The notes under the pieces: generated by a model
The model's input: only the letters and a program-made list of their open reading frames with translations
What the model was told of the DNA's origin: nothing
Databases searched by the model: none
Program-made: the position numbers and the translations under genes
In this document: in pieces, positions 119 to 9,154 of the stretch
Layout of the letters: each line of letters opens with the position of its first letter
Numbering within the stretch: the first letter of the stretch is position 1
Virus genome (UHGV): UHGV-1630673
DNA: 12,383 nt
Reading direction: 5' to 3' (one strand)
Origin: a virus

Positions 119-1339
119 ATGTACCAGAAAAAATCGGCTGACGATCAGCCACAAAGTATTGGTGAAATCTCCTCCCAGCTCACCATGGTGATTGATCAGG
201 TCAAAAACTTCGGCGAAGACGTGAAGAGAAAAATGGAGGCAGGAGAAACCGTTTCGCTGGAACTGAAACAAAGAACGGACGAAAGCCTTAATCAGATGAA
301 CGAGCTGAAAGAACGTCTCACTGAGCTGGAGCAAAAAGGTGCACGCCGCCCGAACGATGCACCTGCACAGCGAAAATCGCTCGGTGAGCTGGTGGTCGAA
401 AGTGAAGAGTTCAAAGGCATGGACAGTTCGGCCCGTAAGAGCATCCGCGTCAAGCTGGAACAGAAAGATATTATGAACGTGCCGGCGACTACGGGCACTG
501 GCGTGAGCGCAACAAACAGTCTGGTTGTATCCGATCGTGTTCAGGGCATTATCGCACCACCGGAACGCACTCTTACCATCCGTAACCTGCTGATCCCCGG
601 TAATACTGCATCCAACGGTATTGAATTCGTTCAGGAAACGGGGTTTACCAATAATGCTGCAGCTGTGGCGGAAGGTGCCCTCAAGCCAAAATCAGACATT
701 AAGTTTGAGCTGAAAAGTGCGCCGGTACGTACCATTGCGCATTATTTTAAAGCGTCCCGTCAGATCCTGGACGATGCGCCCGGTCTGGCCAGTTATATCG
801 ATGGCCGTGCTCAGTATGGTCTTCGCTTTAAAGAGGAGCAGCAGTTGCTGAGCGGCGATGGCACCGGCGCGAATATCCTCGGTATTCTGCCGCAGGCAAC
901 AGAATTTGCTCCAGCGCTTACCCTGTCCAACGCCACGCCGATCGACCGTCTTCGCCTGGCTGTTCTGCAGGCCGTTCTTGCAGAATATCCGGCGTCTGGT
1001 TTTGTACTGAACCCGATTGACTGGGCAGGCATCGAGTTGACCAAAGATAACGAAGGCCGCTACATCATTGCGCAGCCGGTCAATGGTGGTGTTCCACGTA
1101 TCTGGGGGCTTCCTGTTGTGGAAACTCAGGCTATGGCGCAGAACAACTTCCTGACTGGAGCCTTCAACATGGCTGCGCAAATCTTCGATCGCATGGATAT
1201 CGAAGTGCTGCTCTCCACTGAGAACGAAGATGACTTTATTAAAAACATGGTCACCATTCGTGCGGAAGAGCGTCTGGCATTAGCAGTTTATCGTCCGGAA
1301 GCATTTGTCACCGGTAATGTAACCGCTTCTGGCGGCTGA
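119..1339 (+). CDS. Major capsid protein, HK97-fold, with N-terminal delta (scaffold-like) domain
   Basis: 406-aa ORF with AAGGGA Shine-Dalgarno 108-113, 5 nt before ATG 119. The first ~100 residues are charged and coiled-coil-like (ISSQLTMVIDQVKNFGEDVKRKMEAGE...LKERLTELEQKG), typical of the HK97 gp5 delta domain; the remainder has the size and character of HK97-family capsid proteins. High GC, followed by a hairpin terminator. Confidence 0.88.
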   Translation: MYQKKSADDQPQSIGEISSQLTMVIDQVKNFGEDVKRKMEAGETVSLELKQRTDESLNQMNELKERLTELEQKGARRPNDAPAQRKSLGELVVESEEFKGMDSSARKSIRVKLEQKDIMNVPATTGTGVSATNSLVVSDRVQGIIAPPERTLTIRNLLIPGNTASNGIEFVQETGFTNNAAAVAEGALKPKSDIKFELKSAPVRTIAHYFKASRQILDDAPGLASYIDGRAQYGLRFKEEQQLLSGDGTGANILGILPQATEFAPALTLSNATPIDRLRLAVLQAVLAEYPASGFVLNPIDWAGIELTKDNEGRYIIAQPVNGGVPRIWGLPVVETQAMAQNNFLTGAFNMAAQIFDRMDIEVLLSTENEDDFIKNMVTIRAEERLALAVYRPEAFVTGNVTASGG

Positions 1340-1346
1340 CAATTCA

Positions 1347-1372
1347 GGGCCGCTTAGCGGCCCTCTCTTTCT
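1347..1372 (+). terminator. Intrinsic terminator-like hairpin after the capsid gene (probably partial/attenuating)
   Basis: Perfect 7-bp GC stem GGGCCGC (1347-1353), loop TTA, GCGGCCC (1357-1363), followed by a pyrimidine/T-rich tract TCTCTTTCT (1364-1372). The T tract is interrupted by C, so termination is probably incomplete. Confidence 0.5.
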
Positions 1373-1384
1373 GAGGAGATTGTG

Positions 1385-1639
1385 ATGGCCAGAAAAAATG
1401 TGGCTGAACCGTCTGTATCCGACGGTAAAAATGTGGCGCCAGAACCCTCTGAGTCCGGGACTATTCAGGTTCAGCCTGTCCGGCGTTTTATGGATGGCGA
1501 CATTTTCAGGACGCCTGCCGATGATCCTTTTCATGTCTCTCGCTTACGTGCTGCCGAGCTCAAAGGTAACGGGCTGGTGACGATAGTTGGTGAAGTCCCT
1601 GATAACAAAATGAACCGCGCCCCCGAAACCAAAGGGTAA
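1385..1639 (+). CDS. Small head-module protein of unknown function (84 aa)
   Basis: GAGGAG Shine-Dalgarno 1373-1378, 6 nt before ATG 1385 (the ORF track begins at GTG 1382). Stop TAA 1637-1639 overlaps the next start ATG 1639 (TAATG coupling). No family recognised. Confidence 0.6.
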   Translation: MARKNVAEPSVSDGKNVAPEPSESGTIQVQPVRRFMDGDIFRTPADDPFHVSRLRAAELKGNGLVTIVGEVPDNKMNRAPETKG

Positions 1640-1977
1640 TGGTTATGACGGTAATCAACACTGAAACAGCCATGGAACATCTCAGGCTGGATGATGAAAT
1701 CGATAAAACGATGGTGGAGGGGTATCTTGCCGCTGCGGAGGATGCTGCTATGCAGTTTCTTAACCGACGCTTTTTTGCTGACCAGGCCGCGCTGGATAAC
1801 GCAATTGAAAATGAAGGCGCCGGCGATCGCCCAATTATTATCACGCCCTCTATTCAGAGTGCGGTTCTTCTTATACTGGGCTGGCTATATGAAAACCGTG
1901 GGGATGACCTGGGTCATGATATCCCTGGCCCTGCGCGTTGGTTGCTTAATCCCTATCGCATCGATATGGGGGTATAA
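1639..1977 (+). CDS. Head-tail connector protein (phage gp6-like family)
   Basis: 112-aa ORF; N-terminal segment TAMEHLRLDDEIDKTMVEGYLAAAEDAAMQFLNRR matches the characteristic N-terminal pattern of gp6-like head-tail connector proteins. Position after capsid is consistent. Translationally coupled to the upstream ORF. Confidence 0.75.
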   Translation: MVMTVINTETAMEHLRLDDEIDKTMVEGYLAAAEDAAMQFLNRRFFADQAALDNAIENEGAGDRPIIITPSIQSAVLLILGWLYENRGDDLGHDIPGPARWLLNPYRIDMGV

Positions 1978-2042
1978 AAATATGGCCTGCGAAGGGTGCC
2001 GCCGTCGGCGTGAATGGTTAAAAAAGTGGACGAAAATTGCCT

Positions 2043-2240
2043 ATGAACGAGCAACAGGTAAACGCGCTGATAGCAGCGCTGAGCGAACAAACAGCAGCAC
2101 AGAGAGAGCAGACGGAAGCGATAAACCGCCTGGCTGAATCAAACATGGCTCTGTGTGATGTGATCATTCAGTCTCTGGCCGGTGAAGAGGATGTGCAGGC
2201 AGAGCCGAAAACCTATCTCAGCGGAAAACCCAGGGGGTGA
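2043..2240 (+). CDS. Small hypothetical protein (65 aa)
   Basis: ORF in the 265-bp gap between connector and head-tail joining genes; protein MNEQQVNALIAALSEQTAAQREQTEAINRLAESNMALCDVIIQSLAGEEDVQ... looks like a real helical protein. Stop 2238-2240 abuts the next start 2242. Shine-Dalgarno is weak (GTGGA 2026-2030); the ORF track starts at TTG 2037. Confidence 0.45.
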   Translation: MNEQQVNALIAALSEQTAAQREQTEAINRLAESNMALCDVIIQSLAGEEDVQAEPKTYLSGKPRG

Positions 2241-2241
2241 T

Positions 2242-2574
2242 ATGCAGGCCGGGAAATTGCGTCACAGGGTTATCCTGCAGGAGCCGGTAAAAGAGCAGAG
2301 CCCGACAACGGGCGCCGTAATCAATACCTGGCGCGATGTCGCAACCATCTGGGCCGAAATCTCCCCCTTATCTGCGCGGGAGTTTATCGCGGCCCAGGCA
2401 TCACAGGGCGAGATAACAACGCGTATAACGATTCGCTACCGGGCGGGCGTCACCAGAAAGCACAGGATTCTGTATCGCGATGGCATTTACAACATTGAAG
2501 GCGTTTTACCAGACCCGCGCAGCGGCAGGGAGTATCTGACGCTGCCCTGCTCAGAAGGGGTGAATGATGGCTGA
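2242..2574 (+). CDS. Head-tail joining / head closure protein (110 aa)
   Basis: GGGGGTGA upstream of ATG 2242. Protein MQAGKLRHRVILQEP...IWAEISPLSAREFIAAQA...ITIRYRAGVTRKHRILYRDGIYNIEGVLPDPRSGREYLTLPCSEG shows the typical pattern of phage head-tail joining proteins (GKLRHRV..LQ, RYR, Y.I..V.D..GR.E.L.L.C.E). Stop overlaps the next gene. Confidence 0.75.
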   Translation: MQAGKLRHRVILQEPVKEQSPTTGAVINTWRDVATIWAEISPLSAREFIAAQASQGEITTRITIRYRAGVTRKHRILYRDGIYNIEGVLPDPRSGREYLTLPCSEGVNDG

Positions 2575-3106
2575 TGGTGTAGAGGTTAACCTTACCGGGC
2601 TTGAGTCGGTGCTGGGCAAGATGGATGCTGTCTCACAGGTGACCCGCAATAAAACCGGGCGTGCAGCGCTGCGTAAAGCAGCAAACGTCATCCGGGACAG
2701 GGCCCGCAGTAATGCCGCTCGTGTTGATGACTTTCTTACTAAAGAAGCCATCTATAAAAATATTGTCGTCAGTTTCAGCAGCAAAGCCTTTCGCAGAACG
2801 GGCGACCCAACCTTTCGTGTAGGGGTAATGGGCGGAGCAAGGCAATATGCCAATACAAAGGCCAATGTGCGAAAAGGCAGGGCGGGTAAAAGTTATAATA
2901 CAGCCGGAGATAAAGGCAATCCCGGTGGTGATACCTGGTACTGGCGATTTCTGGAATTCGGGACCGAGCATATGGCTGCGAGGCCAATACTACGCCCGGC
3001 AATGAATGGCGTGGATACTGACGTAATTAATATTTTCGCTGTGGAACTGGAAAAGGCTATCGATCGTGCCGTCCGTAGCGCAGCCAAAAAAGGAACGTCC
3101 GTATGA
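2567..3106 (+). CDS. HK97 gp10-like tail component protein (179 aa)
   Basis: Contains WYWRFLEFGTEHMAARPILRPA, a close match to the conserved FLEFGT...ARPF(L)RPA signature of HK97 gp10-family proteins. Start ATG 2567 (track 2564, tandem ATGs) overlaps the upstream stop at 2572-2574. Confidence 0.75.
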   Translation: MADGVEVNLTGLESVLGKMDAVSQVTRNKTGRAALRKAANVIRDRARSNAARVDDFLTKEAIYKNIVVSFSSKAFRRTGDPTFRVGVMGGARQYANTKANVRKGRAGKSYNTAGDKGNPGGDTWYWRFLEFGTEHMAARPILRPAMNGVDTDVINIFAVELEKAIDRAVRSAAKKGTSV

Positions 3107-3468
3107 TAGCTCCAATATTCTCTGTCTGCGCGGCAAGCCAGGCTGTAAAGGATTTATTGGGTACCAACCCCGTCAGGCTCTATCCCTTCGGGATACAGGA
3201 TGACAATATCGTTTACCCCTACGCGGTCTGGCAAAACATTGGCGGCTCTCCTGAAAATTACCTGAACCAGCGGCCAGATGCTGATCACTACTCTCTTCAG
3301 GTTGATGTTTATGGTGATACCGATGCAGATGTAATTGCCGTGGCCCACGCATTGCGTGATGCCATCGAAGGGAAAGCCTATATTACCCGGTGGGGAGAGC
3401 AAAGCCGTAATGATTCCACGATGAAATACCGCTATTCCTTCGATGTTGACTGGATCGCGTCCAGGTAA
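3103..3468 (+). CDS. Tail completion / tail terminator-like protein (121 aa, DUF3168-like pattern)
   Basis: AGGAA Shine-Dalgarno 3091-3095; ATG 3103 overlaps the upstream stop (ATGA). N-terminal pattern SQAVKDLLGTNPVRLYPFGIQDDNIVYPYAVWQ resembles tail completion proteins encoded immediately upstream of major tail genes. The family call is tentative. Confidence 0.6.
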   Translation: MIAPIFSVCAASQAVKDLLGTNPVRLYPFGIQDDNIVYPYAVWQNIGGSPENYLNQRPDADHYSLQVDVYGDTDADVIAVAHALRDAIEGKAYITRWGEQSRNDSTMKYRYSFDVDWIASR

Positions 3469-3486
3469 CCAACAACCCTAAACTGA

Positions 3487-3512
3487 CCCGCTTTGAGCGG
3501 GTTTTTCTATTT
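3487..3512 (+). terminator. Intrinsic terminator-like hairpin upstream of the major tail gene
   Basis: CCCGC (3487-3491), loop TTTGA, GCGGG (3497-3501), followed by TTTTTCTATTT (3502-3512). It sits between the tail completion gene stop (3468) and the major tail Shine-Dalgarno GGAGA (3515-3519). Confidence 0.5.
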
Positions 3513-3525
3513 ATGGAGACTAAAA

Positions 3526-4017
3526 ATGTCTGTATTAACGCAAGGCACACAGTTCTTTGTTCTGAAATCTGGCGTGGTCAGCGAGGTTGAATGTATCACT
3601 AGCTTCAATCCCGGCGGCAACCCCGCCGATCAGATTGAAGATACCTGCCTGAGTGAACGGGATTCCAGAACCTACAAAAAAGGTCTGAAAACGCCAGCGG
3701 CTGCAACTGTCGGGCTCAATGCTGACCCGACGAACGCCAGCCACATCATGCTACATGGCCTTGCAGAAGCTAATGACCAGGCGTCATTAACTTTTGCCGT
3801 TGGCTGGTCAGATGGCACCAGCGTTCCGACCGTTGCCGCTTCCGGCGATGAAGATGCTGTTGATGGTCTGGTGCTTCCATCTGATCGCACCTGGTTTATT
3901 TTCCAGGGCTATGTTTCCGATTTTCCATTCGATTTTCAGGGCAATGCGGTTGTGACGACCTCTGCCACCATTCAGCGCTCGGGCTCTTCAGTATGGGTTC
4001 CGAAAGCCGCCGCGTAA
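3526..4017 (+). CDS. Major tail (tail tube) protein (163 aa)
   Basis: GGAGA Shine-Dalgarno 6 nt before ATG 3526 (track start 3493 is a TTG inside the terminator). Its position immediately before the chaperone G/GT pair, its size, and motif resemblance to lambda gpV N-domain-like tube proteins ([12 protein letters not shown]..., [10 protein letters not shown]..., [11 protein letters not shown]) support the call. Hairpins flank the gene on both sides. Confidence 0.75.
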
Positions 4018-4024
4018 CCATTAT

Positions 4025-4050
4025 GCCCGGAAATCCGGGCTTCACTATTC
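4025..4050 (+). terminator. Hairpin / attenuator after the major tail gene
   Basis: GCCCGG (4025-4030), loop AAAT, CCGGGC (4035-4040), then TTCACTATTC. The stem is perfect but the U tract is weak, so this may be a partial terminator or a stabilising hairpin. Confidence 0.4.
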
Positions 4051-4060
4051 AGGAGTTGAA

Positions 4061-4444
4061 ATGCAGCTTACTCTCGATACGTTAAAAGAAACCGGGGCAT
4101 TCACTGGCCGCCCGGTAGAGAAAGAAATCAAATGGAAAGGTCGTGACGGGCAAGAACATATTGCAACCGTCTTTGTACGTCCTATGGGCTACCACACCAC
4201 TAAAGCTGAACTGCTGGCGTATAACGGCAAATCAGATCCGGTGGCTGGGCGTATTGCCGCCCATATCTGTGATGAGGAAGGCAAGCAAATCTTCACCGAG
4301 GCGGACATTCTCGGAACTGCATCTGAAGACCGTGGTGCACTTGATGGCCCGATTGTTATTGCCTTGCTGACCGTAATTCAGGGAGTCAACGAGCTGGGAA
4401 AGACTACGAACTCACAGGAGAAGACGAGTTCTGGTGTGAGTTAG
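4061..4444 (+). CDS. Tail assembly chaperone (lambda gpG-like), zero-frame product (127 aa)
   Basis: AGGAG Shine-Dalgarno 4051-4055 and ATG 4061. Position between major tail and tape measure genes. Contains an in-frame slippery heptamer near its 3' end; stop TAG 4442-4444. Confidence 0.8.
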   Translation: MQLTLDTLKETGAFTGRPVEKEIKWKGRDGQEHIATVFVRPMGYHTTKAELLAYNGKSDPVAGRIAAHICDEEGKQIFTEADILGTASEDRGALDGPIVIALLTVIQGVNELGKTTNSQEKTSSGVS

Positions 4445-4710
4445 TCATGAACGGCATTGGCGGGAGAACGATCGAGGAGGCTCAGGAGCGAATGAGCCTC
4501 CGTGAGTTTCAGATATGGGTAAAGTACCGCAATAAGTATGGTCAGCTTAACAACATGATGCGAACCGAGTGGGGGGCCTCGATGGTCGCTTCTGTTCTGG
4601 CGAACATCAATAAGGCGAAGAACACGCCTACTTATAAGGTCAGTGACTTTGCGCCCCATATCAATGAATCCCCTTTGTCGCTTCAAGATGCCATGAAAAA
4701 TTGGCACTGA
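4061..4710 (+). CDS. Tail assembly chaperone G-T fusion made by -1 frameshift at 4396-4402 (predicted ~216 aa)
   Basis: The -1 frame downstream of the slip site encodes DYELTGEDEFWCELVMNGIGGRTIEEAQERMSLREFQIWVKYRNKYGQL...ASVLANINKAK..., resembling the lambda gpT-like domain pattern. The T-frame ATG at 4447 has no Shine-Dalgarno, consistent with expression only as a fusion. Confidence 0.75.
4396..4402 (+). other. Programmed -1 ribosomal frameshift slippery heptamer G GGA AAG
   Basis: GGGAAAG at 4396-4402 lies in the G reading frame as G|GGA|AAG (codons 113-114 = Gly-Lys), the same heptamer and phasing as the phage lambda G/GT shift site. The -1 frame is open from 4402 to TGA 4708-4710, with no stop across the junction. 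Confidence 0.8.
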
Positions 4711-4773
4711 TAACTGTTAAATGCAGTGCAGGATCACTATCATCAGTAAACTAATAACTACTGGGATAGGGAT

Positions 4774-5151
4774 ATGAAAAAGTTAATTTTCGCTTTAGTA
4801 CTTGGCGCATCCGCTTTAACAATTACTGGCTGCGCCCCAACAGTCCAGAAAATCGACTACAACCAGAAATCTATGCTTCTATCTCTTGGGATGAGCAAAA
4901 ACGATGTTATGCAGATTATGGGATCGCCTAGAAGGACTGATGTTAACCCAGAGCGCGAACGCTGGATTTATTGGAATAAGTCTCTATACGGCTACACTAT
5001 TATCGATAACGAACAATTAGCTAATGATCGACTAGTTGTTACGTTTGTAAGCGGGAAAGTGGCTAAGTGGGGCCAACAAACATTGGCTGATGATGTCATG
5101 GAATCATCACAAAAAACCGCCCAAGCTTATGCCGAGGCACTTAAAAAATAG
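4774..5151 (+). CDS. Moron: predicted outer-membrane lipoprotein with BamE (SmpA/OmlA)-like motif pattern (125 aa)
   Basis: N-terminus MKKLIFALVLGASALTITGC is a signal peptide with lipobox ITG|C; residue +2 is Ala, so outer-membrane sorting is predicted. Mature part LSLGMSKNDVMQIMGSPRR...ERWIYWNK...LVVTFVSGKVAKW follows the BamE-like pattern (GM[ST]..V...G[ST]P...W.Y...[LV]TF..GK[LV]). The gene is clearly AT-rich relative to the head genes and is followed by a strong intrinsic terminator. Confidence 0.8.
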   Translation: MKKLIFALVLGASALTITGCAPTVQKIDYNQKSMLLSLGMSKNDVMQIMGSPRRTDVNPERERWIYWNKSLYGYTIIDNEQLANDRLVVTFVSGKVAKWGQQTLADDVMESSQKTAQAYAEALKK

Positions 5152-5172
5152 TCGCTTAAATTAAATTATGAA

Positions 5173-5195
5173 CCTCGCCTCGGCGGGGTTTTTTT
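5173..5195 (+). terminator. Intrinsic terminator after the lipoprotein moron
   Basis: CCTCG (5173-5177) pairs with CGGGG (5184-5188) (5 bp including one G-U pair, 6-nt loop), followed by seven T residues (5189-5195). Confidence 0.6.
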
Positions 5196-5213
5196 ATGCC
5201 TGGAGAAAACTTA

Positions 5214-7754
5214 ATGGCTGGAAAATCCCTTGGTACATTAACAATTGACCTGATAGCAAAAGTAGGCGGATTTGTTCAGGGGATGGATAAGGCTGAAAGG
5301 TCGTCCCAAAAATGGCGCGATCAGGTAAAAAAAGACGCTAAAGAGGTTGGGGCATCCCTGGCTGCTATTGGCGTAGCAGCAGCTACTGCTGCCGTTGGAA
5401 TTGGCATTGCTGGTCTGGCGATTGTAAAAAACACCGCTCAGCAGGTAACTGAGGCTGACAGGTGGGCAAAATCATTAAAAATGTCCACTCAAGATTTATT
5501 ATCCTGGCAATACGCAGCTGAACAAGCCGGTTTAACTGGCGATAATATTGCAGATATTTTTAAAGATATTAACGATAAAGTCGGCGATGCGGTTCTGAAC
5601 AAATCAGGTGAGGCTGCTCAGGCACTGGATACTCTCGGGCTTTCAGCTCAGAAGTTGGCCCAGCAATCCCCTGACAAGCAACTGATGGCTATCAGTGGAG
5701 CATTACAGAAAATCCCCTCTCAGGCCGGGAAAACCAATATCCTCGAAAGTCTGGGTAATGACCTGTCAAAAATGTTGCCGTTGTTCGATAACAATAACGA
5801 GAAATTGAAGCAATTTATCCAGTTGTCAAAAGATTTTGGTGTCGCACCTCCCCAGGAAGATATTGATAATCTGGTTAAAGTTAATCAGTTCTTTCAGGAT
5901 ATCGAGACCAGCGCGCGCGGCATGAGGATGGAAATTGCATCAGGTCTAGCAAAAATTGATCTGTCACCTTTGCAGGATGGGCTGGATGATATTCGAGACG
6001 TATTTACTGATCCTGCTGTTCTTCAGGGTATTTCGGACCTTGTAGGTGAGGCAATCAGTCTTGCAGGAGTGGTTGGCCGAATAGCTGGTGGTTTGGGAGC
6101 TATCGCATCCTATACACGCTCTCGCGTTGGTGCCGTATCAGGGAATTACGATGCTTCCGATCTAAACGACGTAGAACAGCGTATTGAATTCCTGAACAAG
6201 AGAGGTAACCAGAGTAAGGAACAAAAAGAAGAGTTAGATTTTTTAAACAAGCGCCGTGATTTTTTGCAAGCAATCAAAGGATCGATACTCACCCCAGAAG
6301 AATCACAAAGGGCCGCGAAGGGGATGCAGTCCTTGCTTTCTGACATGGACATAGAGCCGAACACCACTGATAATTATAATCTTGGTAAAGATGAATCGAA
6401 CCAGAAGCAAACTGCTAAGAAAAACCCAACTGATAACGCATTCAAAAGTAGATTACTAGACTTACAGAAACAAGCTGCACTTATTGAAACTACTGGTAAA
6501 AAAACAGCTGAAGTTACAGAGCTTGAAAAAATAAATTTTGATATTGCCAGTGGGAACCTGAAAAAATTATCTGAGGATCAAAAAGAACAGCTTCGTATTG
6601 CTGCAAAAACACTTGACTCTAAAAAAGAAGAACTGCGACTTAACCAAGAGAATGCAAAGGTTGCAGAATATATTTCCGGTTTAACAAGGCAAAACAAGCT
6701 TGTCCGACAGGGATATGATAACGAAATTATGGGTCTTTCTTTGGGAAGTAAGGACCGTGGCAGAATGCGAGAGTTAAATGGCATTCAGCAGGATTTCGAA
6801 TCGAGACAAGAGGAACTTTTAAATCAACTTCAGTCTGGTGATATTGATAATAGTTTATATGATAAAAAGAAAGAGGCGTTAAAGGATGCACTTAAAGAAC
6901 GCTTGCAAATACAGGAAAGTTATTATCAGGAGTCAGATGATTTACAAAGTGATTGGCAATCTGGCATCTCAAGTTCATTAGCTGACTTTGCTGACATTTC
7001 TAGTGATTACTACCAGCAAGCAGCTAATGCGATGACATCGATACTGGGTTCAGCTACTGATTCCATCTCTGAGCATTTATATAATGTTATCGATGGTACC
7101 GAGTCGATGGGAGAAGCTATAAAAGGTATTTTTGCAGATCTTGGTGAATCTGTGATTCAAGCTCTTGTCGATATGGCTGCTCAATGGATTGTGTACCAGG
7201 GTGTCCAAATGCTGGTTAACAAATCAGTACAGGCCTCTGCTATTCCTGCAATGATTGCTAATGCACAGGCTACTGCATTACAGGGTCAACTTGCCGCTTT
7301 TGCTTCAACCGCCGCAATACCAATAGTTGGGCCTGCAATGGCTCCAGCAGCCATGGCTGCTGCCGCTGCTGTAACGCAACCAATGGTTGCTGCTATATCC
7401 GTCGCTTCAATATCAGGTATGGCGCATGATGGCATTGACTCAGTACCAAAAACAGGAACCTGGCTCCTACAGGAAGGTGAACGAGTTACCACAGCTAAAA
7501 CCAGTGCAAAGTTGGATGCTACGTTGGATCGGGTAGCGAACCAGTCAACCGGCGGTGGCGCTATCTATGCCCCAAATATCACCATTCCTATCAATGGCAA
7601 TCCTTCAGATGCCACATTGTCGCTGGTACGTAAGGCGGCTGATGAGGGGGCTGAGCGCGGATATCGGAAAGCTGTTAACTCCATAGCCAGCGGGCAGGGT
7701 GATTTGCACAAGGTATTAATGGGGAAAACAAACTCGGGGAGGAAAATTGGCTGA
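5214..7754 (+). CDS. Tail tape measure protein (~846 aa)
   Basis: Longest gene of the tail module, immediately after the chaperone pair. Features: N-terminal hydrophobic segment (LAAIGVAAATAAVGIGIAGLAIV), long charged helical centre, and Ala/Gly-rich hydrophobic C-terminal region (AAFASTAAIPIVGPAMAPAAMAAAAAVTQPMVAAISVAS). GGAG 5202-5205 is 8 nt before ATG 5214; the track start ATG 5196 sits directly on the terminator T-run with no Shine-Dalgarno. Confidence 0.85.
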   Translation: MAGKSLGTLTIDLIAKVGGFVQGMDKAERSSQKWRDQVKKDAKEVGASLAAIGVAAATAAVGIGIAGLAIVKNTAQQVTEADRWAKSLKMSTQDLLSWQYAAEQAGLTGDNIADIFKDINDKVGDAVLNKSGEAAQALDTLGLSAQKLAQQSPDKQLMAISGALQKIPSQAGKTNILESLGNDLSKMLPLFDNNNEKLKQFIQLSKDFGVAPPQEDIDNLVKVNQFFQDIETSARGMRMEIASGLAKIDLSPLQDGLDDIRDVFTDPAVLQGISDLVGEAISLAGVVGRIAGGLGAIASYTRSRVGAVSGNYDASDLNDVEQRIEFLNKRGNQSKEQKEELDFLNKRRDFLQAIKGSILTPEESQRAAKGMQSLLSDMDIEPNTTDNYNLGKDESNQKQTAKKNPTDNAFKSRLLDLQKQAALIETTGKKTAEVTELEKINFDIASGNLKKLSEDQKEQLRIAAKTLDSKKEELRLNQENAKVAEYISGLTRQNKLVRQGYDNEIMGLSLGSKDRGRMRELNGIQQDFESRQEELLNQLQSGDIDNSLYDKKKEALKDALKERLQIQESYYQESDDLQSDWQSGISSSLADFADISSDYYQQAANAMTSILGSATDSISEHLYNVIDGTESMGEAIKGIFADLGESVIQALVDMAAQWIVYQGVQMLVNKSVQASAIPAMIANAQATALQGQLAAFASTAAIPIVGPAMAPAAMAAAAAVTQPMVAAISVASISGMAHDGIDSVPKTGTWLLQEGERVTTAKTSAKLDATLDRVANQSTGGGAIYAPNITIPINGNPSDATLSLVRKAADEGAERGYRKAVNSIASGQGDLHKVLMGKTNSGRKIG

Positions 7755-8233
7755 TGGCTATTACAACACCGATTAATTACCCCTCGGACTATTTGCCAGG
7801 ACCTCTTAAAGATAGTTTTGGTCTTAAGCCAGTTTCGCCGCTAAAAAGCACGCCAATTATTACTGGCAGGCGACGTCAAAGGCGTGCTTATACATCCGTA
7901 CCTACAGAAACAGATATTGCATGGCTCTTTGATGATGCCCAGGCGCAAGCTTTTGAGGCGTGGTACCGGGATGTGCTTTCTGATGGCAGCGCCTGGTTTA
8001 ATATGCCTTTGCTGACGCCTGTCGGACATAAGAATTACGTCTGCAGATTTACAGATATCTATAGGGGGCCGACGCCAGAAGGTGGTTTGTTCTGGCGCTA
8101 TGTTGCGCCCATTGAGTTATGGGAGCGTCCTATGCCTCCTGCTGGGTGGGGGTATTATCCAGAATGGATTACGGGTAGTTCGCTGCTTGATATTGCGCTG
8201 AACAAGGAGTGGCCGAAGCATGACGGTGATTAA
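7754..8233 (+). CDS. Minor tail protein (159 aa), tail-tip/distal tail component by position
   Basis: ATG 7754 overlaps the tape measure stop TGA 7752-7754; GGGGAGG at 7737-7743. First gene after the tape measure, so a tail-tip role is inferred from position. No family recognised. Confidence 0.55.
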   Translation: MAITTPINYPSDYLPGPLKDSFGLKPVSPLKSTPIITGRRRQRRAYTSVPTETDIAWLFDDAQAQAFEAWYRDVLSDGSAWFNMPLLTPVGHKNYVCRFTDIYRGPTPEGGLFWRYVAPIELWERPMPPAGWGYYPEWITGSSLLDIALNKEWPKHDGD

Positions 8234-8702: not shown

Positions 8703-8726
8703 TAGGTAAGCGAACCAACAAATCTA

Positions 8727-8749
8727 CCTCGCATTGACGAGGTTTTTTT
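8727..8749 (+). terminator. Intrinsic terminator (second copy of a repeated motif)
   Basis: CCTCG (8727-8731), loop CATTGA, CGAGG (8738-8742), then seven T residues (8743-8749). Shares the 16-nt string GGTTTTTTTATGCCTG with the terminator at 5187-5202. Confidence 0.6.
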
Positions 8750-8773
8750 ATGCCTGTGATTTGCGGAGGCGTG

Positions 8774-9154
8774 ATGTTCAAACAGGAAAAATATGAATCC
8801 GTTGTCTGGCTGAAAGGTGGTCGTGATTATCCAAATCTCGACTGCTTCGGCCTTATCAATGAAGTTCGGCGGGACCTCGGTCTACCCGCCTGGCCGGATT
8901 TTGCAGGAGTGACGAAAGATGATGGTGGTCTCAACCGTGAGGCCAAAAAATTGATGATATCGCTGACCCGTTGTGAGCCCAGCGAAGGGGCTGGGGCTGT
9001 TTGCTATTCCGGGTCCACCGTCACACATGTTGCCGTTGTCGTGCGGATTGGCGATCAGTTGCTTGTTGCAGAGTGCAACCCGCAAACAAACGTGACATTT
9101 CTTCCTCTGTCTCGTTTCAAACGGCGGTTCGTTAAAGTGGAGTTCTGGCAATGA
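8774..9154 (+). CDS. NlpC/P60-like (papain-fold) tail protein, lambda gpK-type peptidase domain (126 aa)
   Basis: Candidate catalytic Cys in NLDCFGL, downstream His in THVAVVV, and a polar residue ~17 aa later (AECN), spaced as in NlpC/P60 domains. Position before the host-specificity gene fits. Start is ambiguous: ATG 8750 has no Shine-Dalgarno, while ATG 8774 is 4 nt after GGAGG (8765-8769). Stop overlaps the next start (ATGA at 9151-9154). Confidence 0.55.
   Translation: MFKQEKYESVVWLKGGRDYPNLDCFGLINEVRRDLGLPAWPDFAGVTKDDGGLNREAKKLMISLTRCEPSEGAGAVCYSGSTVTHVAVVVRIGDQLLVAECNPQTNVTFLPLSRFKRRFVKVEFWQ

Follow-up and report, generated by a model that had tools for sequence, protein, structure and literature searches.

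The term 'moron' was first applied at the junction between the tail assembly chaperone and tape-measure protein (TMP) genes, to gene 15 of phage HK97 (PMC3594210). The product of this gene, gp15, is expressed from the prophage and blocks genome injection in a tail-dependent manner (PMC3594210). In phage ES18, the record places three 'possible morons' (gp18-20) between chaperone gene 17 and TMP gene 21, and a putative terminator follows each of them. We analyzed the same junction in a 12,383-nucleotide stretch of the virus genome UHGV-1630673 (the whole stretch is referred to here as the window). In the window, the interval between the chaperone and TMP genes (4711-5195) contains a gene on the + strand for a 125-residue predicted lipoprotein with a BamE-like domain (4774-5151, ATG to TAG). 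We conclude that 4711-5195 is very probably a mobile accessory lipoprotein cassette, that is, a moron. The full statement, in which the accessory cassette also has a protective or exclusion role, is more tentative, and we put its probability at roughly 0.45.

The cassette resembles HK97 gene 15 in its slot between the chaperone and TMP genes, in encoding a small envelope-targeted accessory protein, and in forming a unit of deviant GC content with a terminator (PMC3594210). It differs in that gp15 is a YebO-like inner-membrane protein for which exclusion was shown, whereas the window protein is a predicted outer-membrane lipoprotein for which we infer exclusion. There was no homology to gp15/YebO, or to the repeat domain of the phage lipoprotein Ltp, in Pfam, PHROG and NCBIfam scans, and the fold of the window protein appears to be BamE-like. 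The resemblance to ES18 genes 18-20 is likewise one of position and layout (chaperone/TMP slot, each gene followed by a putative terminator), and here too the protein families are different, none of the ES18 proteins being BamE-like. Given that HK97 gp15 and ES18 gp18-20 are encoded in the same slot, the position of the lipoprotein gene is a classic one and not an unusual one; the initial annotation had expected a BamE-like fold in this role and position to be unusual. One of the ES18 slot morons, gp19 (locus L020, 1835-3364), adjoins the TMP gene and carries an annotated DUF4041 domain, the same domain with which the SNIPE nuclease defense binds TMPs (PMC13190303).

Evidence that the interval is an accessory cassette came from sibling phages. 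DNA similarity to Klebsiella phage KpF5 and its relatives ends at the end of chaperone gene T. The tube, G and T proteins of the siblings are 83-97% identical to those of the window by one comparison and 79-97% by another, yet their slots contain unrelated cargo. In KpF5 and Escherichia coli PRO_A the cargo is a second lipoprotein family (MIKKAAVVFTVMLLGG or MKKIAIMLFALLLTA, directly followed by the lipobox Cys), and this KpF5/E. coli-type lipoprotein is 33% identical to ES18 gp20. E. coli EC7 and phage vB_EcoS-716R3 carry a secreted 125-residue protein with a type I signal peptide, and Klebsiella phage ST16-OXA48phi5.3 carries a 155-residue protein that has two hydrophobic segments and is probably membrane-embedded. 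The slot cargo is an exported or membrane protein in all four types, the window gene included. The spacer upstream of the gene is approximately 85% conserved with E. coli PRO_A, such that the leader and the first codons are common to both and a different lipoprotein is then encoded. The presence of a common 5' leader and a common hairpin and ribosome-binding site (RBS) junction around different cargo indicates that the slot behaves as a cassette-exchange site. We take the gene to be dispensable because unrelated cargo replaces it in relatives, which is replacement and not absence; no relative with an empty slot was found among the phages compared. We also considered co-evolution of the lipoprotein gene with the TMP gene and rejected it, as TMPs 85% identical to that of the window carry either the lipoprotein gene or an unrelated secreted protein.

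The gene is also found at other positions in other genomes. A scan of GTDB genomes gave 14 loci and a scan of IMG/VR gave 74, and contexts were counted in the 86 fetched loci in which an intact open reading frame (ORF) was recognized, including the window and Flyfo phage Tbat2_3. In 49 of the 86 loci the gene preceded a TMP gene, either immediately or with one or two small ORFs in between. It was downstream of a TMP gene in 3/86, between the lysis cassette and the small and large terminase genes of one Klebsiella-type lineage in 32/86, and elsewhere in 2/86. The 49 upstream loci cover six TMP types, and every long neighbor tested was a TMP (PHROGs 2854, 1538, 1107, 339 and 24). A single cluster of the lipoprotein (single linkage, ≥90% identity) covers four contexts, which argues for recent transfer between phage backbones. 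Altogether, the context was a phage tail or lysis/terminase region in 84 loci, unlike that of a housekeeping chromosomal gene. The cassette is thus found by preference at moron hot spots, above all next to TMP genes. The hosts of the family include Klebsiella, Salmonella, Enterobacter, Serratia, Pectobacterium, Stutzerimonas/Pseudomonas and Alcaligenes. The initial annotation had proposed an accessory cassette in place of a virion gene, and had raised recurrence of homologs at this junction as a way of checking it; the unrelated slot genes of the siblings, the other genomic positions and the 49 loci just upstream of a TMP gene all bear this out.

Several individual loci had additional features. 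In the Flyfo siphovirus Tbat2_3 (L002, 3383-5366), the homolog is one of four genes in an accessory block located 3' of the TMP gene, another being annotated as a YafO toxin gene, and the junction after the TMP gene is therefore also a multi-moron site. Some phages pair the BamE-like gene with a second, unrelated small lipoprotein gene (L007, 6384-6707; L060-L065, 5384-5707; L012, 5592-5987). In Enterobacter-type prophages the paired lipoprotein genes share an ATGA overlap, with the terminator placed after the second one, and in Stutzerimonas the second lipoprotein gene is just upstream of the BamE-like gene. The second lipoproteins had no match in Pfam, NCBIfam or PADLOC. Two copies were found in Alcaligenes, an intact one in A. 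parafaecalis (L018, ~5960-6350) and an N-terminally disrupted one in A. aquatilis (L019, 6037-6315). The two copies share their chromosomal position and a conserved neighboring gene downstream, have no recognizable phage genes within 6 kb, and could represent a host origin of the gene or a prophage remnant.

The lipoprotein gene is the only ORF of at least 50 residues on either strand of the interval. We found 113 homologs in a large protein database, the closest being 97% identical and from Klebsiella pasteurii. Pairwise dN/dS (the ratio of nonsynonymous to synonymous substitution rates) was 0.025-0.045 in comparisons with homologs that are 82-97% identical in protein, with synonymous sites near saturation. 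The protein matched PHROG 18614 (2.8e-66) and also PHROG 3135, both of unknown function. The low dN/dS, the number of homologs and the PHROG match indicate that the ORF is a genuine gene, and not a chance ORF, and that purifying selection on it is strong. Across the family alignment, 34 columns are invariant, among them Cys20 and those of the motif PRRTDVNxxRERWIYW.

The protein has the signals expected of an exported lipoprotein. It starts with MKKLIFALVLGASALTITG-CAP, in which MKKLIFALVLGASALTITG-C is the signal peptide (residues 1-19) with the lipobox (4774-4833, + strand). The lipobox I-T-G-C places the predicted lipidated residue at Cys20 with Ala at +2, and it passed a rule-based check in the style of PROSITE PS51257. 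The same rule was passed by 32 of 35 family members, 30 of which have Ala at +2 (at least 90% of the lipobox-matching members). In Enterobacterales, a residue other than Asp at +2 predicts Lol-dependent sorting to the outer membrane, and by this rule the lipoprotein would be localized to the outer membrane. The mature folded domain comprises 105 residues.

Upstream of the gene there is a 63-nucleotide spacer (4711-4773, + strand, GC 0.365) that would form the untranslated leader and may contain a promoter. No terminator separates the lipoprotein ORF from gene T. A candidate promoter element, the -10-like hexamer TATCAT (4738-4743, + strand), is located 30 nucleotides before the ATG. A sigma-70-type consensus scan of the spacer found no site scoring at least 9/12 and no good -35 near TATCAT. 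In homologous cassettes from different contexts, a TAnnnT hexamer is kept approximately 30 nucleotides before the ATG, often as an extended -10 (TGnTAnnnT). It is TATGAT in L052, TGCTAGGAT in L008, L010 and L060, TGGGTAGGAT in L007, TGATAGGAT in L089, and TGCTAATCT or TGTTAATCT in the lysis/terminase lineage. This positional conservation suggests that TATCAT is a -10 element, although the cassettes share ancestry and the conservation is only suggestive to that extent. A promoter belonging to the cassette is plausible on these grounds.

The Shine-Dalgarno (SD) region of the gene is GGGATAGGGA (4763-4772, + strand), and GGGGATAGGGA(T/C)-ATG is conserved together with the lipoprotein gene in both the TMP-upstream and the lysis/terminase contexts. 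We considered the possibility of an SD-sequestering leader and rejected it. In the window, the segment 4733-4773 pairs the TATCAT region with the SD (-16 kcal/mol, z = -3.9), but this architecture is not conserved; at other loci the SD is paired with different segments and the z-scores are mostly insignificant. There was no match to Rfam. With the fold that is predicted for the window, a late read-through transcript would mask the SD and a transcript starting past TATCAT would not, so that translation could come to depend on a promoter within the cassette.

The 3' end of the cassette is a terminator-like hairpin, GAACCTCGC-CTCG-GCGGGGTTT followed by a T-run (5170-5195, + strand). The stem is GC-rich and 9 base pairs long (5170-5178 with 5183-5191), the run of seven T residues is at 5189-5195, and the hairpin has an energy of -14.6 kcal/mol (z = -3.1 versus shuffles). 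A hairpin of the form AACCTCGC-loop-GCGGGGTTTTTT was found 3' of the lipoprotein gene in at least 63 of the 86 loci, including those of the lysis/terminase context, and variant stems such as AAGCCCGC...GCGGGCTT preserve pairing. The same hairpin and RBS junction is also present 3' of the unrelated cargo genes in sibling phages.

Immediately after the hairpin there is a junction module, (A)TGCCTGGAGAAAA-N-ATG (5196-5216, + strand), that gives the TMP gene its RBS and true start. The ATG at 5196, which is within the T-run, is ATT or GTT in relatives, and the GGAG at 5202-5205 and the ATG at 5214 are conserved. The TMP gene therefore almost certainly starts at 5214, and not at 5196 where a mechanical ORF call begins. 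Where the cassette is in a tail context, (A/T)TGCCYGGAGAAAA-N-ATG is joined directly to the T-run and provides the RBS of the next gene, whatever its family. The genes found downstream of this junction motif encode TMPs of different families, a homolog of the product of the window gene at 7754-8233, and a 124-residue ORF. The sequence GCCYGGAGRAA occurs 34 times in 865 kb of related loci, and 31 of these occurrences are within 120 nucleotides downstream of a lipoprotein stop codon, where the hairpin lies. The junction motif was seen at 5196-5213 in the window and in L008-L012 and L077-L093. It looks like a cassette feature through which translation of the next gene is re-established after the insertion.

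Most of what the initial annotation had described in this interval was reproduced. The spacer, the 125-residue ORF and the LTITG-C type lipobox with Ala at +2 were present, TATCAT was found with no good -35, and the proposed terminator was recovered as the hairpin and seven-T run at 5170-5195. A second claim, that the GC content of the cassette is lower than that of the flanking head genes, also held, but low GC is not confined to the cassette. GC content was 0.412 for 4711-5195 compared to 0.519 for 119-4710, but the TMP gene downstream is also AT-rich (0.443 overall, and 0.387 over 6201-7200). Because the AT-richness runs on into the TMP gene, the drop in GC reflects a mosaic boundary where gene T ends, and not the cassette alone. 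The terminator is not peculiar to this gene, since the same hairpin is found behind other cargo in siblings, and other terminator-like hairpins are present in the operon (1346-1364, 3485-3503 and 8726-8743).

The TMP gene itself is mosaic. Its center (6201-7200) is the most AT-rich stretch of the window, with local GC minima of approximately 0.36, and the TMP is 72-85% identical to those of the siblings, far below the tube protein (97%).

We compared the protein to known families and folds. Residues 36-98 gave a marginal match to Pfam BamE (PF04355; 25.2 bits versus a cut-off of 23.2, E = 1.5e-5). An AlphaFold2 model made with 35 sequences had a mean pLDDT (predicted local distance difference test) of 82, and besides the signal helix and a C-terminal helix (104-124) it contains two short helices and an antiparallel sheet, with the BamE/SmpA-OmlA-like domain at approximately residues 28-102. 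In a Foldseek search of the PDB, the top matches were Neisseria BamE (5wam, 1.3e-4), OsmE, BtiO, many E chains of beta-barrel assembly machinery (BAM) complexes, and BLIP. Template-modeling (TM) scores against BamE were 0.5-0.63 on the target, the query being a predicted structure only, and the matches to OsmE, BtiO and BLIP were about equal to those to BamE. A few uncharacterized phage proteins in the BFVD viral library share the fold. These results are in keeping with the initial annotation, which had called the protein BamE-like, and the model suggests that it is so at the level of domain and fold.

The relationship to BamE itself appears to be distant. No BamE model was matched in NCBIfam, where there were only sub-threshold matches to YgdI/YgdR and OsmE, and the family profile gave only E = 0.3-1 against BamE chains in the PDB. 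An hhalign comparison to E. coli BamE, using a BamE sequence entered by hand, gave a probability of 72% (E = 3e-5). An exhaustive profile search of 1.84 billion representatives recovered 7 clusters at 1e-30, 27 at 1e-10 and 212 at 1e-3, indicative of a compact family that grades into miscellaneous small lipoproteins of the same architecture. The protein shares with BamE/SmpA-OmlA proteins, including OsmE, the lipobox, the non-Asp +2 residue, the core motif GMxxxxVxxxLGxP...W, and the fold of two helices and an antiparallel sheet. It differs from them in being phage-borne, in belonging to a compact separate family with its own motif and an extra C-terminal helix, and in falling below the NCBIfam cut-offs. 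By these comparisons the protein belongs to a separate phage-borne family and is not an ortholog of BamE. Annotation pipelines already name the family BamE or BamE domain-containing, and a PHROG already exists. A search of the literature on BamE-like or SmpA/OmlA prophage lipoproteins found nothing relevant and no functional study.

How such a cassette might protect a lysogen can be outlined as follows. The cassette is made up of a single gene, preceded by a brief leader that contains a weak -10-like element and an SD for the gene, and followed by a predicted intrinsic terminator fused to a replacement RBS for the TMP gene. Its moron architecture would be consistent with expression from the prophage in lysogens. 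The protein would be exported, lipidated and, according to the sorting rules, anchored in the outer membrane, where it would display a BamE/OsmE/BLIP-type domain and a C-terminal helix in the periplasm. This domain could serve as a periplasmic binding or neutralizing module that acts on a conserved envelope component and thereby protects the lysogen. The most plausible form of protection would be superinfection exclusion at the stage of envelope crossing, after adsorption and before DNA entry, or else a more general protection of the envelope.

We favor a protective periplasmic role because the fold binds or neutralizes other proteins elsewhere, because the slot cargo are all envelope proteins, because characterized genes in or near the slot act on phage entry (gp15, the SNIPE domain DUF4041, and P-FimU in a tail cluster), and because several phage lipoproteins have exclusion activity, among them Ltp, Llp, Cor and the mEpimmI Lpp proteins (PMC11893012 for the last). 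BLIP, a fold neighbor of the lipoprotein, is an inhibitor protein, and BtiO, a periplasmic immunity protein of a type VI secretion system, neutralizes an effector that acts in the periplasm (PMC12541434). Both share this small fold and function as binders and neutralizers that are secreted or periplasmic; they differ from the window protein in their low sequence identity to it (15-18%), in having unrelated targets, and in not being phage genes. P-FimU, which a prophage encodes in its tail cluster, is a copy of a host pilus subunit and functions in anti-phage defense (PMC12952977). The location in a tail cluster is common to the lipoprotein gene and to the P-FimU gene of Pseudomonas F10-like phages, in which a copy of a subunit of a host envelope machine defends against phages, and the fold and the host are different. 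The lipoprotein Ltp binds the TMP (PMC3952083). Like the window protein, Ltp of Streptococcus thermophilus phage TP-J34 is a prophage lipoprotein, and it blocks injection by binding the incoming TMP; it differs in fold and host, TP-J34 being a Gram-positive phage that has the gene for Ltp in its lysogeny module.

The high conservation of the protein over distant hosts and different tail modules argues that its target is a conserved host envelope component, and neither a variable receptor nor a fast-evolving phage protein. A conserved target keeps open a block of the injection route, a BAM-directed mimic, and general envelope fitness.

There were several points that weigh against a role in exclusion. 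The protein had no match in PADLOC, and no exclusion-annotated family was matched in PHROG, Pfam or NCBIfam. Adjacency to the TMP gene may reflect just a permissive recombination site, with the hairpin/RBS junction capable of driving the exchange, and the cargo does not covary with the TMP allele. Conservation as strong as that found here is atypical for a direct arms race with phage proteins. The promoter is weak by consensus, and the gene, in sense orientation and with no upstream terminator, could just be transcribed late along with its neighbors. Lastly, the copies in Alcaligenes are apparently outside of prophages, making a role in host physiology possible.

This last point bears on the idea that the protein is a lysogenic conversion factor for host fitness and not for phage defense, functioning in envelope stress, osmotic protection, or serum or bile resistance in the manner of lambda Bor or OsmE. 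The fold similarity to OsmE, the weak NCBIfam similarity to OsmE and YgdI/YgdR, and the presence of intact and decayed copies in apparently non-prophage contexts in Alcaligenes are all consistent with such a function, as is the fact that the distant relatives are ordinary small lipoproteins of many bacteria. In addition, lambda bor adjoins lysis genes, and the Klebsiella lineage has the lipoprotein gene beside its lysis genes. On the other hand, most copies are phage-borne and 52 of the 86 loci have the gene beside a TMP gene, and we consider a purely host-directed function possible but unlikely.

Receptor masking of the Cor/Llp type, which the initial annotation had offered as the analogy, would have the lipoprotein bind and inactivate the phage's own receptor from the inner leaflet of the outer membrane, protecting the lysogen and sparing the loss of progeny on debris. 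Cor (phi80, N15 and mEp167) and Llp (T5) are outer-membrane lipoproteins encoded by phages, and they shield the cell during infection or lysogeny; the window protein resembles them in predicted localization and, by the proposed analogy, in role. Similarly, the Lpp lipoproteins of mEpimmI phages are encoded in structural clusters and exclude phages according to receptor (PMC11893012). The sense orientation of the gene in the late operon would also give late expression. However, there was no sequence or fold similarity to annotated exclusion lipoproteins in PHROG, the PDB (by Foldseek) or BFVD: the PHROG matches were 18614 and 3135 only, and no FhuA-Llp or Cor entry was among the Foldseek PDB matches. 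Furthermore, the gene is linked to the TMP gene and not to a receptor-binding gene, the J-like gene beginning 4 kb downstream. The same protein (54-98% identical) is found with unrelated tail-tip modules in Enterobacterales, Stutzerimonas and Alcaligenes, so that a variable receptor is unlikely as the common target. The analogy to Cor and Llp is weakened by this conservation across tail tips and hosts and by the lack of a sequence or fold match to exclusion families, and masking of the phage's own receptor is in our view distinctly unlikely. We also considered whether the protein is one of the characterized mEpimmI Lpp proteins, and rejected this. A lipoprotein of mEp013 is 28% identical to the window protein, but among sequenced phages it is unique to mEp013, whereas the type-C Lpp is common to four phages (PMC11893012). 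This homolog is not a characterized Lpp, and no experimental data can be transferred from it.

A third alternative takes the resemblance to BamE literally. As a BamE paralog or mimic, the protein would dock on the host BAM complex (BamA POTRA5/BamD) and modulate either outer-membrane protein assembly or BamA as an entry route for phages or toxins. The Pfam BamE match is above the gathering threshold, BamE is the best Foldseek match, the hhalign probability is 72% (with the hand-entered sequence), and the protein is, like BamE, a lipoprotein with a non-Asp +2 residue. P-FimU provides a precedent for a prophage copy of a host envelope-machine subunit used in defense, and the high conservation across bacterial classes would suit a conserved host target. 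Set against these are the absence of any NCBIfam BamE match and the E values of only 0.3-1 to PDB BamE chains. The small number of clusters at 1e-10 (only 27) also separates the family from true BamE, from which it is further distinguished by an invariant motif (PRRTDVNxxRERWIYW) and an additional helix at the C-terminus. With comparable matches to OsmE, BtiO and BLIP, binding of BAM cannot be read from the fold alone, and we regard such a mimic as very unlikely. An elaboration of this idea, reached by analogy to P-FimU on the type IV pilus, is equally doubtful: a 'P-BamE', a decoy of a host envelope-machine subunit, might dock on the BAM complex or another conserved periplasmic machine. By blocking a conserved path through the envelope, such a decoy, again very doubtful, would shut out incoming siphovirus tails in both Beta- and Gammaproteobacteria, and would account for both the extreme conservation and the recurrent placement beside TMP genes.

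That the gene encodes a tail structural or assembly protein, or a lysis accessory such as a spanin, with an odd N-terminus is scarcely credible: the sense orientation inside the tail operon, the absence of an upstream terminator and the position after Rz-like genes in one lineage would allow it, but unrelated genes replace the lipoprotein gene in siblings with near-identical neighbors, the gene occupies three different genome positions, and it has a conserved lipobox and its own hairpin terminator. A spanin was rejected specifically, as the protein has no C-terminal transmembrane segment (and is therefore no u-spanin), there is no embedding or paired i-spanin gene here, and the domain is folded.

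The lipoprotein is an uncharacterized moron-encoded envelope protein of a well-known kind, the existence and position of which will not surprise a specialist. Its wide distribution, strong constraint and portable terminator-plus-RBS junction make the gene a reasonable candidate for experiments. If it is an exclusion or envelope-protection factor, it would add a widespread class of lipoproteins to the known prophage defenses, and would be relevant to phage therapy against Klebsiella, since such genes limit host range. The chaperone/TMP junction of this phage lineage, as an exchange site with exported or membrane cargo, offers a simple genomic rule for finding candidate envelope-acting prophage genes.

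The remainder of the window contains the late morphogenetic operon of a siphovirus. There is an HK97-type major capsid gene (119-1339) and a lambda-like tail tube gene (3526-4017), followed by the tail assembly chaperone genes G (4061-4444, + strand; Pfam Phage_TAC_13, 3e-30) and T (4447-4710, + strand, with TGA at 4708-4710; Pfam Phage_tail_T, 7e-8). Gene G contains a lambda-type slippery heptamer, G GGA AAG, in its zero frame (4396-4402), and from there the -1 frame stays open into T (to 4710), indicating that the chaperone pair is made by the standard G/GT programmed -1 frameshift. The TMP gene (5214-7754, + strand) matched PHROG 2854 (3e-291) and Pfam Tape_meas_lam_C. It is directly followed by a gene at 7754-8233, a homolog of which follows the lipoprotein cassette in some relatives, and then by distal tail genes that include a DUF1833 gene and a gene for a 1018-residue J-like protein (start at 9151). 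The neighboring genes have 82-87% DNA identity to Klebsiella and E. coli phages and prophages, and the window is from a temperate siphovirus, probably a Klebsiella prophage.

One further site in the window resembles the 3' junction of the cassette. Between the DUF1833 gene and the next tail gene, the segment 8703-8773 contains a solo hairpin (8726-8743) with a T-run, followed by ATGCCTG; in KpF5 there are only approximately 10 nucleotides at this junction. The true start of the tail gene after the hairpin is probably the ATG at 8774, as relatives align only from residues 6-9 of the ORF that begins at 8750. This site may be the scar of a lost cassette or a second insertion site.

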